From positions 6,086 to 70,085 of the forward strand of contig CAYSUO010000002.1 of assembly GCA_964434325.1 (NCBI GenBank): a stretch of DNA of 64,000 nucleotides, read 5' to 3'. The notes beneath the pieces were generated by a model. It was not told the origin of the DNA, did no database searches, and worked only from the letters and a program-made list of their open reading frames with translations. The DNA comes from an uncultured Ruminococcus sp. (GTDB lineage Bacteria > Bacillota > Clostridia > Oscillospirales > CAG-272). This document shows, one piece after another, positions 34,155-40,125 of this stretch; position 1 is the first letter of the stretch; every line of letters starts with the position of its first letter. A program made the position numbers and the translations under genes.

Positions 34155-35277
34155 GCTCCTCCGTCACGAAGGCACAGTCGGCGCTTGCGATGAATTTCAC
34201 GGCGCCGAACGCCGCCGAGGCTTCCGCCTCGCTTCCCGCGGGAAGGGCGATATAGTTTTCCGAGGCAAAGCTCTCGAAGCTCCGCGCCTCGGAGCCCCTA
34301 TTGAAGCTGGGTGCGGCATAGTGCACACCCGTGCGCATTATCTGCACCACGTCACCAATGACGGCGGAAGCGGTTGCACCCGCGCCAGCGCCTCTGCCAT
34401 ACAGCATAACGTTGCCGAGGGGCTCGGCGAGTATCTCCACCGCGTTATAGACGCCGAAAACGCCTGCAAGCGGCTCCGTCTCGCGTATCGCGAAGGGGGC
34501 GACGAAAACGTGGGCCGCCTCGTCATTTTTCACAATGCAACGCGCCACGAGCTTGACGACGAAGCCGAAGCGCTCCAATGCCTCTACGTCTTGGGGGCGA
34601 ACGGCTGTGATACCCTCGGTGTGAATTTCCTCGGGCGGAATGAGCGCGCCCGTTGCTATCGCCGCCAAAATGCATATTTTGCGCGCCGCGTCAAGCCCCT
34701 GAACGTCGGCGGCGGGGTCCTTTTCCGCGTAGCCCTTCGCCTGGGCGCCTTCGAGCGCGGACGCGAAGCTATCGCCGAACTTGAACATGCGCGTTAAAAT
34801 GTAGTTGCTCGTTCCGTTCAAGATACCGCGCACCTCGGAGAGCTTGTTTTGCTTTATGAAGCTTATCAGGGGAGAAATGACGGGGATACCGCCGCCAACC
34901 GCCGCCTCGAAGCGATAGGTCACGCCGTTTTCCGCCGCGAGCCGCAAAAATTCATCGCCGAAGCGGGAGACGACCTCCTTGTTGGAGCTCACCACGTGCT
35001 TCCCTGCGCGGAGCGCCGCCACGGTGTATTCGTAGGCGGGGTGCGAGCCGCCCATGAGCTCGACGACGCAGGAGACGGAGCTATCCGCGAGAATGACGAA
35101 AAAATCGTGAACCACGCGGCTCTCCATGGGATCGCCCGAAAAATCTTTAAGATCGAGAACGTATTTCACGTTGAGCGCGTCGCCGCCAAGGGCGGCGATC
35201 TCGCTTGAATTTTGAGCGACGAGCTCGGCGACGCCGTGACCGACGACGCCGTAGCCGAGAATTGCAATATGAGTCAT
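34069..35277 (-). CDS. hom: Homoserine dehydrogenase (with C-terminal ACT domain)
   Basis: ORF track 34069..35370. From ATG 35277 it reads MTHIAILGYGVVGHGVAELV, with ILNGTSNYILTRM. AAAGGAAAAG SD. Confidence 0.9.
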   Translation of the reverse strand: MTHIAILGYGVVGHGVAELVAQNSSEIAALGGDALNVKYVLDLKDFSGDPMESRVVHDFFVILADSSVSCVVELMGGSHPAYEYTVAALRAGKHVVSSNKEVVSRFGDEFLRLAAENGVTYRFEAAVGGGIPVISPLISFIKQNKLSEVRGILNGTSNYILTRMFKFGDSFASALEGAQAKGYAEKDPAADVQGLDAARKICILAAIATGALIPPEEIHTEGITAVRPQDVEALERFGFVVKLVARCIVKNDEAAHVFVAPFAIRETEPLAGVFGVYNAVEILAEPLGNVMLYGRGAGAGATASAVIGDVVQIMRTGVHYAAPSFNRGSEARSFESFASENYIALPAGSEAEASAAFGAVKFIASADCAFVTEELTESAVSARLAELAARGIAPLSRIRLLK

Positions 35278-35341
35278 TGGCTTTTCCTTTGTTTTTATTG
35301 CGCGTAGCGCGATAAATGCAAACAATATCACATTATGACTT

Positions 35342-35370
35342 ATTATACTACTTTTTTTGAAAAAAAGCAA
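35342..35370 (-). promoter_or_regulatory. Predicted hom promoter
   Basis: Minus strand reads TTGCTT-17 nt-TATAAT. Confidence 0.45.
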
Positions 35371-35585
35371 GTAAAACGCAAAAAAAGCTGTCGCCCGTCA
35401 GAATTATTCAAAAATGAAGCCTTGACTATGCGAAAAGGGCGTCTCATTTGGGCTTAATATAACAAGCTTTTTAAGGTGCGAGACATTGAGAATACAGATA
35501 AGCGGGGCGAATTTAAGTTTTTCGTCAAAAATTTCGTATTCTTAGTGCGAAGCGACTTTGAAGTTCGCTTGATTTTCACACAAAA

Positions 35586-35657
35586 ACGGCAGAAGCAGAG
35601 ATATTTCTTCACTTCTACCGTTTTCGTTTGACTTTGATAAATGCGACAGGCGCTTTT
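35586..35657. repeat. Solo module A of the repeat family: bidirectional terminator hairpin + conserved TAAATGCGACAG end
   Basis: aaaaACGGCAGAAGcagagatatttcttcaCTTCTACCGTtttcgtttg..gaTAAATGCGACAGgcgctttt, downstream of the HD gene. Confidence 0.6.
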
Positions 35658-35705
35658 GTTTATACAAAAATCTTTGCTAAGCGTTGTGCGAGAAATTTAC
35701 GGGGC

Positions 35706-36308
35706 TTACGAATTGCCAGCCTCGCGCTTCTTGCCCTCCAAAAAATACGTCGCCTCACTATCCGCCGTTGAAAGGGCGAATGCCAAGGGGAACATCTCGA
35801 AGGCGGCGGAGACGTTGCGCGCGTCCTCGGTTGAGGAATAGCCCATGTGATAGCGTATTGCAAAGGCTTCCTCGCGCGAAAGCTTCATGTAGCCCGTTAT
35901 CATGTAGACGCTTTTTTCGCCGTGCCCGTAGGGGAGCTTATCGTCGTACTCGTAGGTTTCGACGCGCTGCCAAACGCCCTTTTCGTCCTTGACGTTGCGG
36001 AAGCCCTTCTTGTAGACGTTGACCTTACAGAGGTCGTGGAGGAGGGCGACGATGGCGATGGTTTCCTCCGAATAGGCGAAGCCGAAGGTCTCGCGAGCGC
36101 GCTGGGTACAGAGATAGCTATGAAGGCACTCGTAGACGTTGACGGAATGCTCGCAAAGCCCGCCCTCGAAGGAGGAATGGAAGCGCGAGGAGGCGGGCGC
36201 CGTGAAAAAATCGGACGCGGGCGAGAGCAAAAATTCAAGCAACTCTCCCGAGCCCTCGCGCGTGATGAGCCCCTTGTATATATCGATAAATCTATCTTTG
36301 TAGTTCAT
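35706..36308 (-). CDS. HD-domain phosphohydrolase (YhaM-type HD domain, no OB fold)
   Basis: ORF track. FHSSFEGGLCEHSVNV, ALLHDLCK and YGHGEKS. AAAGGA SD. Confidence 0.75.
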   Translation of the reverse strand: MNYKDRFIDIYKGLITREGSGELLEFLLSPASDFFTAPASSRFHSSFEGGLCEHSVNVYECLHSYLCTQRARETFGFAYSEETIAIVALLHDLCKVNVYKKGFRNVKDEKGVWQRVETYEYDDKLPYGHGEKSVYMITGYMKLSREEAFAIRYHMGYSSTEDARNVSAAFEMFPLAFALSTADSEATYFLEGKKREAGNS

Positions 36309-36395
36309 ATTGATATCCTTTCTACCATTTGCTCGCTTGCACTTGCGGCGACGGCACGTACTGCCGAAGCAAAAGCGCTATGTAAACAAAACGCG

Positions 36396-37529
36396 TCATT
36401 GATTTAACTCGGTGTTTTTGTACTCGGCGATTTCCCGCTCCGTGCCGCCGCGCCTGCCGAGGGAGCGCGCGTTGGCGGCGGCTCTGCCGTTGAAGGCACT
36501 TCGCACTATTCTCCAAACGTAGAGGAAGGGGAGAAGAATGGGGCATTTTTTTAACACGGGGAAGGCGCGCCGCATGTGGGAATAAGGGGGAAAGATGCGA
36601 TGGAAAACGAATTTCAGGCGCCCGCCCTTGGAATGTAGGCGAACGCTGTTATCGAGAGTGCCGTACGTGCCGCCGCTGACGAGGTAGAGCTCAAAATCGA
36701 CGGTGCTCTCGTCTGCCTCGCCGCCCGCAAACCAGACGCTTTGCAGGGCGGTTAGCCGCTCGTAGATATCGGAAAGCCCCTTGCGGCGGAGCAAATCGGC
36801 GAACTCCTTCGACGAAAACGACGCGCCGTACTTTTTCGCGAAGAGGTAGAGGTCGAACACCGTTCTCATGCCGCACCCGCCGCTCGAATAGTGCTTCTCG
36901 GCGTGGCGAAGGAGAAAGACGAAGAGCTCGTCGCGGGGGAGGAGGCAACGAAAAGCGTACCCCGCGGCGCGCTCACAGCCGCGAAGCGGGAGCGGGGGCG
37001 CGCCGTGATAGAGCGCCTCGTGCAGCTCGAGCTCGATGAAGGGCGGCTTTTTCAGCACGTGGTGCACCTCGTTTTTAGACGCACGGGTATAGCCCGCGTT
37101 CTCGGCGAGGCGTAGCGCCGCCTCGATGCTTTCGGGCTCGACGTAGATATCGATATCTGTCATCTCGCGAAGCTCGGGGCGGGGATAGAGCTCCTTTAAG
37201 AGGAAGCCCTTCATGGGGAGATAGAGTATTTCGTTTTCCTCGAAGAGGGCGGAGAGCCTTGCAAACTCGGCGCACTGAGACAGGTGCTTGGCGTTCAACA
37301 CCTCCGCCGTGCGACGCCAGCCGAAAAACTGCTCCTCGGTCAGCTCCTCGCGAAGGCGCTCTTTGAGCGCGAAGAACACGAGAGCCGAGAGAGAATGTGC
37401 CTTGGCGACGGCGGCGACGGCGTGCCACGGGAGCTCGGCGGGCTTTTCGGGAGCCGCCGTCCCCTCGGAAAGCGCCTGAAAGGCCTTGGCGATATAACGT
37501 GCGGCGGCTATTTGTTCCTTATACGTCAT
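36396..37529 (-). CDS. Uncharacterised nucleotidyltransferase-family protein (NTP_transf_5-like)
   Basis: ORF track. ILYLPMKGFLLKELYPRPELREMTDIDIYVEPE, the pattern of the family seen as an accessory gene in lasso-peptide clusters. Its start overlaps the peptidase gene by 11 nt. Confidence 0.7.
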   Translation of the reverse strand: MTYKEQIAAARYIAKAFQALSEGTAAPEKPAELPWHAVAAVAKAHSLSALVFFALKERLREELTEEQFFGWRRTAEVLNAKHLSQCAEFARLSALFEENEILYLPMKGFLLKELYPRPELREMTDIDIYVEPESIEAALRLAENAGYTRASKNEVHHVLKKPPFIELELHEALYHGAPPLPLRGCERAAGYAFRCLLPRDELFVFLLRHAEKHYSSGGCGMRTVFDLYLFAKKYGASFSSKEFADLLRRKGLSDIYERLTALQSVWFAGGEADESTVDFELYLVSGGTYGTLDNSVRLHSKGGRLKFVFHRIFPPYSHMRRAFPVLKKCPILLPFLYVWRIVRSAFNGRAAANARSLGRRGGTEREIAEYKNTELNQ

Positions 37530-37986
37530 GTTTTTTCTTTCTCCGAAATATTTTTACATAGGCGCGGCGAAAAAAGCTCGCCACGGAATGGAGGGCGAAG
37601 CGCACGGGGTAGATAAACGTCCAGACGCGAGCGTACACCGCTAAGCGGCGGGAGCTCGCCTCGAAGCGTTTTCCCTTCCTGTCAAACGACGCCAAAACGC
37701 CTATTATCTGCGTGGGGGCGACGTGCTCACGAAAATAGGTGTTGTCGCCGCGCATTATGTACTCGGTGCTCTTAACCGCGACGACGCGGTGCAAAACGTA
37801 GCGCTCACGGTCACGATAGAGGACGACGTCGTACTTCTTCGGCGGCGCACTCGGCGGCACGATTATCACCACGTCGCGCCTGTTGCCCAGCATGGGGCGC
37901 ATACTGTTTCCGACGGCGCACGTGGCGTAAACTCCGTGGCGGCGGAGCTCGGACTCGATGACGGGCTCACTCACGCTATCCGTCAT
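37519..37986 (-). CDS. S26B (SipW/ER-type) signal-peptidase-like protein
   Basis: ORF track. Serine box GNSMRPML, then YDVVLY, then VLHRVVAV (His where bacterial P-type enzymes have Lys), then MRGDN. Hydrophobic or basic C-terminal tail. Confidence 0.7.
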   Translation of the reverse strand: MTDSVSEPVIESELRRHGVYATCAVGNSMRPMLGNRRDVVIIVPPSAPPKKYDVVLYRDRERYVLHRVVAVKSTEYIMRGDNTYFREHVAPTQIIGVLASFDRKGKRFEASSRRLAVYARVWTFIYPVRFALHSVASFFRRAYVKIFRRKKKHDV

Positions 37987-38252
37987 TCTTCAAGTATCCC
38001 AGCCGCGAGAAGTTTTTCGCGGAACGCCTCGACGTCGCGCACGATGACCTCGCGCGGTGCGTCGTACTCCTTCATTGCGGCGAGAACGAGCTCCTCGGCG
38101 CTGACGTCCTTATCCTTGGCGAGCTCCCAGAAGAAGGCGCCCGTGGCGTTCATACGCACGAGCCCCGAAAAGATTTTCGTGCGCTCTCCTACGGCGACCG
38201 CCAAAAAAGAGCCGCCGACGCTTTCGAGAACGAATCCGTCTTTTATCTTCAT
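37983..38252 (-). CDS. PqqD-family protein (RRE-type peptide-binding chaperone)
   Basis: ORF track 37983..38282. MKIKDGFVLESVGGSFLAVAV..VRMNATGAFFWELAKDKDVSAEELVLAAMKEYDAPREVIVRDVEAFREKLLAAGIL. Start moved to ATG 38252 behind the GGAATGGAG SD. Stop overlaps the next start (ATGA). Confidence 0.75.
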   Translation of the reverse strand: MKIKDGFVLESVGGSFLAVAVGERTKIFSGLVRMNATGAFFWELAKDKDVSAEELVLAAMKEYDAPREVIVRDVEAFREKLLAAGILEE

Positions 38253-38280
38253 ATAGTCTCCATTCCGCCGCCTCTGCGGC
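38253..38280 (-). promoter_or_regulatory. Stem-loop + SD cassette upstream of the PqqD-family gene
   Basis: Minus strand reads GCCGC-AGAG-GCGGC-GGAATGGAG-ACTAT-ATG. Confidence 0.45.
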
Positions 38281-38312
38281 ATAAATATTTATTAAAACAT
38301 GTCTTTGCTATA

Positions 38313-38341
38313 AGTATAACATAACACGCGCGGATTTGCAA
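38313..38341 (-). promoter_or_regulatory. Predicted promoter of the PqqD-peptidase-NTase operon
   Basis: Minus strand reads TTGCAA-17 nt-TATACT. Confidence 0.6.
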
Positions 38342-38354
38342 GAGAAAAGCGCGA

Positions 38355-38395
38355 AGAAAATACAGAAAACGGAGACCCGAGCGAGAGGTCTCCGT
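38355..38395 (-). terminator. Rho-independent terminator of eno
   Basis: Minus strand reads ACGGAGACC-tctcgctcg-GGTCTCCGT followed by TTTTCTGTATTTTC. Confidence 0.75.
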
Positions 38396-38420
38396 TTAAG
38401 ATGCTTTATCGCGCGAACGG

Positions 38421-39680
38421 CTATACTCCGAAGCGGGGAGAAAACAGCTCGCTCTCGATTTGGAGCAAACGATTATACTTCGCGGTACGCTCGCCGCGGG
38501 CGGGCGCTCCCATTTTGACGAAGGGGCAGGAAAGCGCAACGGCGAGATCGGCGATAAAGCTATCCTCCGTTTCGCCGCTTCGGTGCGACATCACGGTGCG
38601 ATAGCCGACGCCGCGCGCGAGGCTCACCGCCTCGAAAGTCTCCGTCAAGCTGCCTATCTGATTGGGCTTGATGAGGACCGCGTTTGCAATTCCCTGCTCC
38701 GCGCCGCGACGTATACGCTCCGCATTTGTTACGAACACGTCGTCTCCCACCAGAGTGACCTTTCTCGCCGCAAGGCGCGCGCCGATCCGCTCCCAGCCGT
38801 AGACGTCGTCATCGGCGACGGGATCCTCGATGCTCACGAGGGGATAGCGCTCGGAGAGCGCCGCGAAATACTCGACGAGCTCGTCCGACGTTTTTGAAAT
38901 TCCGCGCTTAGGCAGGTGATAGGCACCGCCCGAATACCATTCGGAGGCGGCGGCATCCAAGGCTATCGAAACGTCGCGCCCAGCCGCGTAGCCGCTGTCG
39001 CCTATCGCACGCACCAAAAGCTCTATCGCCTCCTCGTCCGACGCGAGGCTCGGGGCATAGCCGCCTTCGTCGCCCACGGCGCGCGAATACCCGTTTGCCG
39101 CCAGAATGGCGCCGAGAGTATGATATATCTCGGCACAGGCACGCACCGCCTCGGAAAAAGAGGAGGCACCGACGGGAACTATCATAAACTCCTGAATATC
39201 AAGATTATTGCCCGCGTGCGCACCGCCGTTCAGTACATTCATCATCGGGACGGGCAGAGAGTTGACGAGGGCGCCGCCGAGATAGCGATAGAGGGGAATG
39301 CGGAGCGCTTCCGCGGCGGCGCGAGCAAGCGCCAAGGAGACGGCGAGGATAGCGTTCGCACCGAGCGCCGATTTATTGTACGTTCCGTCCAAGGCGAGCA
39401 TCACCTCGTCGGCCTCCTCCTGATCGAAGGCGCTCATTCCGACGAGAGCGGGAGCTATTATTTCATTGACCGCCGCCACCGCCCCCAAAACGCCTCGTCC
39501 AAAATAGCGCTCCCCCGCCCCGTCTCGCTTTTCAAAAGCTTCGTTCTTCCCACGCGAGGCACCCGACGGGGCGCTGGCAAAGCCCTGCGCTCCGTTCGAC
39601 AGCGTGACGCGGCAGGAGACAGTCGGAGCGCCGCGAGAATCAAGCACCTCGATGGAGCAAATTTCTTTGATTTCTACCAT
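38421..39680 (-). CDS. eno: Enolase (phosphopyruvate hydratase)
   Basis: ORF track. [32 protein letters not shown] and a C-terminal KYNRLLQIE. Confidence 0.95.
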
Positions 39681-39894: not shown

Positions 39895-40125
39895 GAAAAG
39901 CTTCGGGACAAAAAGCTTTGGCAAAGAATAAAATACAATGAATGAAGAACGCGAAAAAGCTTTGCCAAACAGCAAAGCACAATGAATTAAGAGAACGAAA
40001 AGCTTCCACAAATAACAGAATACAATGAACTAAAAAGCACGAAAATCTTTGCCAAATAACAGAACACAATGAACTAAGACTGCGAAAAAGCTTCAACAAA
40101 AGCAGAATACAATGAACGAAGGCAC
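39895..40125. repeat. Tandem array of five 43-44-bp units (plus one partial) upstream of the LysM gene
   Basis: Units start near 39909, 39953, 39997, 40041 and 40084. Consensus is gaaaaagctttgccaaa.a.cagaa.acaatgaac.aa.a...c. The last unit abuts the GGAAGGAG SD of the gene at 40138. Confidence 0.9.

Follow-up and report, generated by a model that had tools for sequence, protein, structure and literature searches.

A 64,000-nucleotide stretch of contig CAYSUO010000002.1 from an uncultured Ruminococcus sp. (here called the window) carries four co-directional minus-strand genes, the products of which are a PqqD-family protein, a peptidase resembling signal peptidase I and SipW (SpI/SipW-like), an NTP_transf_5 nucleotidyltransferase (NTase) and an HD-domain protein, respectively. 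We consider it reasonably probable that the first three genes constitute a reduced maturation core of the type known from linear polyphosphorylated peptides (LPP), which is Clostridial, fixed in the chromosome and served by a substrate encoded elsewhere. In this reading, the 89-aa PqqD protein would be a discrete RRE (recognition element of RiPPs, peptides that are ribosomally synthesised and post-translationally modified), to which a [Y/F]xxP-type leader docks as an extra beta-strand and which presents the leader-core junction to a cytoplasmic SpI-like peptidase with a predicted Ser28/His66/Glu87 active site, which would remove the leader. The NTP_transf_5 protein would be a Pol-beta/ANT-fold transferase that attaches another group to the same substrate, and the HprK/ScmC-like kinase, the MsbA-like exporter and the precursor would either have been lost from the lineage or be kept elsewhere in the genome. 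Since these partners and the precursor are missing from the window, the cassette's substrate would have to be encoded beyond the 64 kb and be acted on in trans. Dependence of the cleavage on the RRE is proposed by analogy with LppB and LppS, and the chemistry of the NTase and the action in trans are likewise what we infer.

LPP and the LPP-like trio of the window

LPP have been described from Paenibacillus alginolyticus by Popov et al. (Nat Commun 2026, PMC13381572). Their clusters encode the precursor LppA, the HprK-like kinase LppK, which installs the polyphosphate that defines the class, the RRE LppB, the SpI-like peptidase LppS, the MsbA-like ABC exporter LppD and LppN, and the domain table of that study gives the core as PqqD, TIGR02228, NTP_transf_5 and TIGR04249/HprK, equating the 'putative NTP transferase' (LppN) with NTP_transf_5. 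LppB presents the precursor to LppS, cleavage by LppS needs LppB, the S29A, H68A and D93A variants of LppS are inactive and the unphosphorylated precursor is a poor LppS substrate (PMC13381572). With these clusters the window shares the same three families, in the same order and in overlapping genes, the catalytic Ser and His, the Asn, Tyr, Asp and Phe of the RRE and a peptidase which, like LppS, lacks an anchor and has N- and C-terminal helices. It differs from them in that no HprK-like kinase, MsbA-like exporter or precursor of the YxxPxVLxHQxIxFETxxS (Px9Fx[T/A]) type lies within the 64 kb, in that its proteins score only ~21 bits to LppS and LppB and carry Glu as third catalytic residue, in its host (Clostridia, not Bacilli), in the appended HD gene and in its vertical inheritance within housekeeping synteny, whereas the distribution of LPP clusters is 'extremely patchy' (PMC13381572).

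For comparison, related loci were gathered, comprising 7 genome loci (from a narrower scan by NTase alignment), 78 metagenome loci and the contexts of protein look-ups. An earlier note on this DNA had proposed a leader-guided pathway with a SipW-like peptidase and an NTP_transf_5 protein and knew of no characterised example of the gene set. For the trio of RRE, SpI-like peptidase and NTase the latter statement has been overtaken by the LPP study, and the proposal itself is supported by the LppB/LppS analogy, by the position of PqqD directly upstream of the peptidase gene in 67 of the 77 loci with room for it, and by natural fusions of the PqqD-peptidase, peptidase-NTase, NTase-peptidase and peptidase-ATP-binding cassette (ABC) exporter types. 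Downstream of the peptidase gene, an NTase gene was present in 17 of 55 loci.

RRE and peptidase

The PqqD protein matches PF05402 with 53.1 bits (cutoff 23.4, E 4e-14), and thereby a discrete PqqD RRE is encoded beside an SpI-like peptidase in the window. By alignment, the leader-binding residues N33, Y60, D70 and F74 of LppB correspond to N35, Y63, D73 and F77 of the window RRE. Its best matches, at 55-60 bits, are 'RRE others' of clusters 4 and 9 of the published sequence similarity network (SSN; PMC13381572), compared with 21-24 bits to LPP RREs and 21 bits to LppB. The peptidase follows the same pattern, with 51 bits to SSN9, 44 to SSN4, 21-24 to SSN1 and ~21 to LppS, and the window proteins thus fall outside SSN cluster 1 and the LPP RRE clade. 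Unstudied SpI groups whose 'other' RREs come from Desulfitobacteriaceae, Lachnospiraceae and Ruminococcus appear in the supplementary table of the same study (PMC13381572), and these are the groups to which the RRE and the peptidase of the window give the higher scores. As judged by these scores, the RRE and the peptidase of the window belong to an unstudied Clostridial sister group of the LPP proteins.

The Ser box, HR and RGDN motifs that the earlier note had read in the peptidase are real, as S28, H66, R67, R79, G80, D81, N82 and E87 do not vary among 8 homologues. In a PDB profile match the peptidase His falls opposite the catalytic Lys of Bacillus SPase I, and S29, H68 and D93 of LppS align to S28, H66 and E87. 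The third position is Glu in all Clostridial groups, complete clusters included, in contrast to the Asp of LppS. With SipW, Sec11 and archaeal signal peptidase I (MEROPS S26B, TIGR02228), the window peptidase has in common the Ser box, a His at the site of the bacterial Lys and the GDN box, and it folds alike: its AlphaFold2 model (pLDDT 85) matches LexA, SpsB and SipA folds in Foldseek. It differs from that family in scoring well under the TIGR02228 cutoff (26.8 against 51.85 bits), as it does for PF00717 (S24; 17.2 against 23.3), and in being coupled to an RRE. The model has a short amphipathic helix at residues 9-17 and a long C-terminal helix at 113-152. No N-terminal membrane anchor was found, residues 1-25 (MTDSVSEPVIESELRRHGVYATCAV) not being hydrophobic; lacking such an anchor, the protein would be unable to act on Sec substrates at the outer membrane face, and we reject the idea that it is a true secretory signal peptidase. 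The family is large, a profile search with the peptidase returning 7888 clusters at 50% identity.

The NTP_transf_5 nucleotidyltransferase

The third gene product matches PF14907 with 142 bits (cutoff 31.2, E 2.9e-41), and D125, D127, E168, H170, H209 and H213 are invariant among its homologues. The AlphaFold2 model (pLDDT 92.5) finds ANT(2'')-Ia, LnuA, MenT1 and TM1012 as top Foldseek matches. PsmN, the pseudomycoidin homologue, likewise models on ANT(2'') and is required for hexose addition onto phosphorylated pseudomycoidin; it acts on the phosphorylated peptide only, and its DxD mutant, D134A/D136A, is inactive (Zyubko et al.). The equivalents of this DxD motif in the window NTase are D125 and D127, the predicted metal ligands. 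Deletion of LppN had no detectable effect (PMC13381572), and the window locus could help define what NTP_transf_5 enzymes such as LppN and PsmN do chemically. A homologue of ~30% identity (L107:7001-8197) is found on its own behind a SpoIIE phosphatase gene, away from any RRE or peptidase gene, so that the family is not confined to RRE-containing clusters.

A PqqD RRE and an NTP_transf_5 protein also co-occur among the accessory genes of the lasso peptides paeninodin and pseudomycoidin (B1 RRE and PsmN), as they do here. Unlike those clusters, neither the window nor any examined relative has an Asn-synthetase-like cyclase or a transglutaminase-type B2 protease; both were absent from the contig copies and from relatives to +/-4-10 kb. 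The window RRE moreover carries Asp73 and Asn35, which are of the LPP type, in place of the Gln and Gly of paeninodin B1. A detached lasso accessory fragment was therefore rejected, as no relative lies in a lasso cluster and the RRE pocket is of the LPP and not the paeninodin type. The earlier note had asked whether in relatives the block always lies inside a lasso or sactipeptide cluster; the relatives lie instead in LPP-like clusters of kinase, RRE, peptidase, ABC exporter and NTase genes.

Operon layout

The sequence features of the locus point to a single transcription unit (Table 1). The arrangement of the four genes, with the 4-nt ATGA overlap (37983-37986) joining the PqqD and peptidase genes, the 11-nt overlap (37519-37529) of the peptidase and NTase genes and the 87-nt gap between the NTase and HD genes, is as the earlier note had given it. 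Although the longest mechanical open reading frame of PqqD extends to 38282, the ATG at 38252 is the start with a ribosome-binding site. The putative promoter announced in the same note is present, although calling it near-consensus was generous: the site (38341-38313) agrees at 9 of 12 consensus positions and has a TG extension. Promoter-like sites in the region numbered 5, compared with 1.4 +/- 1.3 in shuffled sequences, and the enolase terminator (38397-38367) lies just upstream. No structure comparable to the terminator after the HD gene was found in the NTase-HD gap (z 0.54), and a Rfam search of 35000-38600 gave nothing meaningful, only a chance miRNA match (E 0.56). In the profile searches, PqqD and NTP_transf_5 scored above their cutoffs and the peptidase and the HD protein below.

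Table 1. Positions of predicted features in the window, and of features in related loci (locus:positions).
Feature	Position	Strand	Remarks
Predicted sigma-70-like promoter	38313-38341	(-)	TTGCAA-17-(TG)TATACT; 61 nt upstream of PqqD start codon
PqqD-family RRE gene, LppB analogue	37983-38252	(-)	89 aa from ATG; GGAG-type ribosome-binding site
Putative SpI/SipW-like (S26B-type) Ser/His/acid leader peptidase gene, LppS analogue	37519-37986	(-)	155 aa
NTP_transf_5 nucleotidyltransferase-fold gene, LppN/PsmN analogue	36396-37529	(-)	377 aa
HD-domain metal-dependent phosphohydrolase gene (predicted)	35706-36308	(-)	200 aa
Predicted intrinsic terminator after HD gene	about 35631-35576	(-)	hairpin -28.9 kcal/mol, z -8.4, then UUUUUGUGUG
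Sites of mosaic gene loss	L013:9356-9965; L014:9913-10001; L101:3790-3844
Loci bearing the new Clostridial leader	L051, L052, L057, L062, L063, L068, L071, L075, L076, L079, L080, L086
Candidate precursors (examples)	L079:6733-6880; L080:6577-6930

The HD gene

The HD gene is probably co-transcribed with the other three, but we regard it as probably a passenger with a separate conserved function and as unlikely to be a dedicated partner or 'eraser' of the NTase. Its product scores just under the PF01966 cutoff (21.1 against 22 bits) and matches PHROG 28876, a phage protein family annotated 'metal-dependent phosphohydrolase' (E 2.4e-44), and several of its cluster relatives carry a precomputed PF01966 annotation. 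No library supported the label 'YhaM-type' of the earlier note: no YhaM model or solved relative was matched, a PDB sequence search gave chance matches only and the protein has no OB-fold-sized extension.

The earlier note had coupled the NTase and the HD protein as transfer and removal, in a four-gene write/erase pathway in which proteolysis is RRE-guided, the NTase nucleotidylates and the HD protein, as an integral member, takes the mark off again. We think this unlikely. It would fit with one promoter and one terminator for four genes and a gap that holds no terminator, with the close succession of NTase and HD genes, at a spacing of 3-32 nt, in the enolase-containing sublineage (the window with L002, L010, L101, L103, L104 and L105), and with the retention of PqqD, NTase and HD in L101 despite loss of the peptidase. 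That sublineage is the only one in which the HD gene is adjacent, which makes the coupling weak; an HD gene follows the peptidase or NTase gene in just 2 of the 41 loci with room, and none stands beside the NTase gene in L011-L016. The two proteins also evolve at different rates, the HD protein being 78-82% identical to its L002 and L010 copies where the NTase is 39-42% identical, and 78-88% against 36-53% identical between loci of the sublineage, with ratios of nonsynonymous to synonymous substitution rates (dN/dS) of 0.04 and 0.26, respectively. Furthermore, the characterised LPP core has no HD gene (PMC13381572), and the HD family is very large and nearly invariant in Clostridia (at least 8000 matches), occurring also between AP_endonuc_2 and Flavin_Reduct genes with no RRE, peptidase or NTase gene nearby (L098-L100:5001-5597). 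Its slow evolution, wide distribution and unrelated contexts place the HD protein probably outside the pathway.

As an observation in its own right, a ~200-aa HD protein is ~80% identical across thousands of Clostridial sequences and found in at least two unrelated gene contexts. In four other loci (L012:11150-12079, L013:11138-12304, L015:3262-4596 and L016:11110-11877), the NTase gene is directly followed by a gene for a predicted lipoprotein of 255-444 aa with signal peptide and lipobox Cys, in the place that the HD gene takes in the window.

Complete LPP-like clusters in Clostridia

Judged by their gene content, Clostridia have LPP-like clusters of their own, with the order precursor-kinase-RRE-peptidase-ABC-NTase. 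In clades B and C of the peptidase tree, the gene directly upstream of PqqD, in ~35 loci in all, encodes a ~240-aa P-loop protein (AKSG[TV]GKSTH; our family c0), which matches the NCBIfam models of ScmC, HprK-related A/B and HPr kinase weakly but consistently and is annotated PF27840 ScmC in L106. It had no match in the copy of Pfam that was searched, and a PDB profile search gave generic P-loop matches only. The same ScmC/HprK-type models annotate the LppK kinases (PMC13381572). Upstream of the putative kinase gene, 12 loci (Table 1) have candidate precursors with a leader of the form (M)KKEFEKPxVEIVxFDxEDVITTS ahead of short cores that are acidic or rich in Pro. This leader resembles the RRE-binding motif [Y/W]xxPx[V/L], and a literature search for the motif strings returned nothing relevant.

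These complete clusters (e.g. L051, L075, L079, L080, L086 and L106) are the closest to the window peptidase, at 36-46% identity, and agree with the window in RRE type and in having Glu as third catalytic residue. They differ from the window in having candidate precursors, the ScmC/HprK-like protein and an ABC exporter that in some cases is joined to the peptidase, and they are themselves uncharacterised. The first account of RRE-guided SpI-type leader peptidases dates from 2026 and concerned LPP clusters of Bacilli alone; the window and its relatives show such machinery to be widespread in Clostridia, given the 7888 clusters that match the peptidase profile, and the second, unstudied leader motif could be used for genome mining.

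The relatives gave some further observations. L052, L053, L057, L062, L063 and L080 (e.g. L080:7980-10040) encode 686-aa fusions of an SpI-like peptidase with an ABC exporter, analogous to the bacteriocin exporters that contain a C39 peptidase; the representative P0167 has the same architecture, and capsule-type genes (Wzz, CpsB- and CpsD-like) come after the fusions. Just downstream of the peptidase gene in L060/L061 (8483-8665), L067, L077 and L078, a stretch of ~100-180 nt is conserved in all frames, which suggests a small RNA gene, possibly a tRNA, and not a peptide. In L006 (9422-13371), ~4 kb downstream of a PqqD-peptidase pair, there is a radical S-adenosylmethionine (SAM)/SPASM protein that bears a PqqD domain at its N-terminus, and after it come an Orn/Lys/Arg decarboxylase-type enzyme and a GlcNAc 2-epimerase-like protein; this region may be a separate RiPP-like cluster.

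The clade of the window: fixed position and missing partners

In a neighbour-joining tree of the peptidase, the window groups with ~30 loci, which share a near-universal synteny of the form MetG-TatD-(TatD-associated radical SAM)-LysM-(Eno)-[PqqD-Pep-(NTase)-(HD)]-ArsR-HMA-P-type ATPase. Kinase, exporter and precursor were found in none of them. The c0 profile had no match in a six-frame translation of the window or in L001-L016, and ABC ATPases and UvrA account for all G.SG.GK[ST] motifs of the window. The MsbA-like exporter profile matched open reading frames of the window over its nucleotide-binding half only (333-551), with no match of the transmembrane domain. As to precursors, neither the LPP leader expression [YW]xxPx[LVIFAM]...Fx[TAS] nor a hidden Markov model (HMM) of 11 published LppA leaders picked up anything but noise in the window or any of the loci, and the HMM of the new Clostridial leader, which matched the 12 loci elsewhere, had no match in the window or its clade. 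Clustering of 5938 small open reading frames around all loci brought up PqqD, antisense shadows, HMA proteins and a probable tRNA region only, and no precursor. The earlier note had seen no RiPP core enzyme, exporter or precursor here, and this is upheld across the 64 kb: cyclase, B2 protease, RiPP-type radical SAM or YcaO enzyme, exporter and precursor are all absent from the window and from the Pfam-annotated contig copies (L095).

The dN/dS values for the peptidase (0.10), the NTase (0.26), enolase (0.09) and the HD protein (0.04) rest on few informative locus pairs, synonymous sites being saturated in most; they indicate that the genes of the clade are functional and under purifying selection. 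Gene loss within the clade is mosaic (Table 1): many loci are without the NTase, L013 is without PqqD, and L014 and L101 are without the peptidase while keeping PqqD and NTase. That the trio is merely the non-functional remnant of a decayed LPP-like cluster would agree with these losses and with that of kinase, exporter and precursor, but we hold it to be highly improbable, given the intact reading frames with their translational-coupling overlaps, the invariant catalytic and binding residues, dN/dS values of 0.10-0.26 and the retention of the set in ~30 divergent loci.

A rival reading, which we consider possible though rather unlikely, is that the RRE-peptidase(-NTase) cassette has been domesticated for a housekeeping role, the maturation or regulation of some cellular protein or peptide (one of sporulation or the cell envelope, for example), with no secreted RiPP involved. 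The cassette keeps a fixed site amid housekeeping genes even between species whose enolases are 63% identical, which contrasts with the 'extremely patchy' LPP clusters; purifying selection acts on its genes, neither exporter nor kinase nor precursor was found, and sporulation genes are near, namely a LysM/YaaH-like gene and, in relatives, SpoIIR. On the other hand, no candidate target was identified, the RRE retains the leader-binding residues typical of RiPP systems, single genes have been lost in several lineages, and the PqqD-peptidase pair is also found at a different site, flanked by a ceramidase gene and aroA (L007-L009). A more specific proposal, namely that in a clade of gut and rumen Clostridia the core has become a housekeeping module, inherited vertically, which does without kinase and export and matures or marks a cellular protein or peptide encoded elsewhere, with the NTase acting directly on a hydroxyl and not on phosphoserine and the HD protein possibly reversing the mark, seems improbable to us.

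Several points weigh against the reading that we favour, a reduced LPP-type maturation core with a substrate encoded elsewhere. No substrate was found in the window or in the ~30 clade loci by leader HMMs or by small-ORF (open reading frame) clustering, and the searches for partners and substrate covered 64 kb of the genome. The peptidase is below every curated cutoff and, by alignment, has Glu instead of Asp as third catalytic residue. The losses in L013, L014 and L101 imply that the parts are individually dispensable. Finally, the class-defining kinase is absent, and as LppS favours and PsmN needs a phosphorylated peptide, the kinase-less trio may work differently. By the same token, a kinase-less trio that is held at a fixed site under purifying selection constitutes a natural experiment on the function of the peptidase and of NTP_transf_5 in the absence of phosphorylation.

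Outside the operon, the AT-rich intergenic region between the divergent enolase and LysM genes (39910-40121) contains a 44-nt unit tandemly repeated ~4.8 times, which may alternatively be described as an 87-nt unit repeated 2.4 times.

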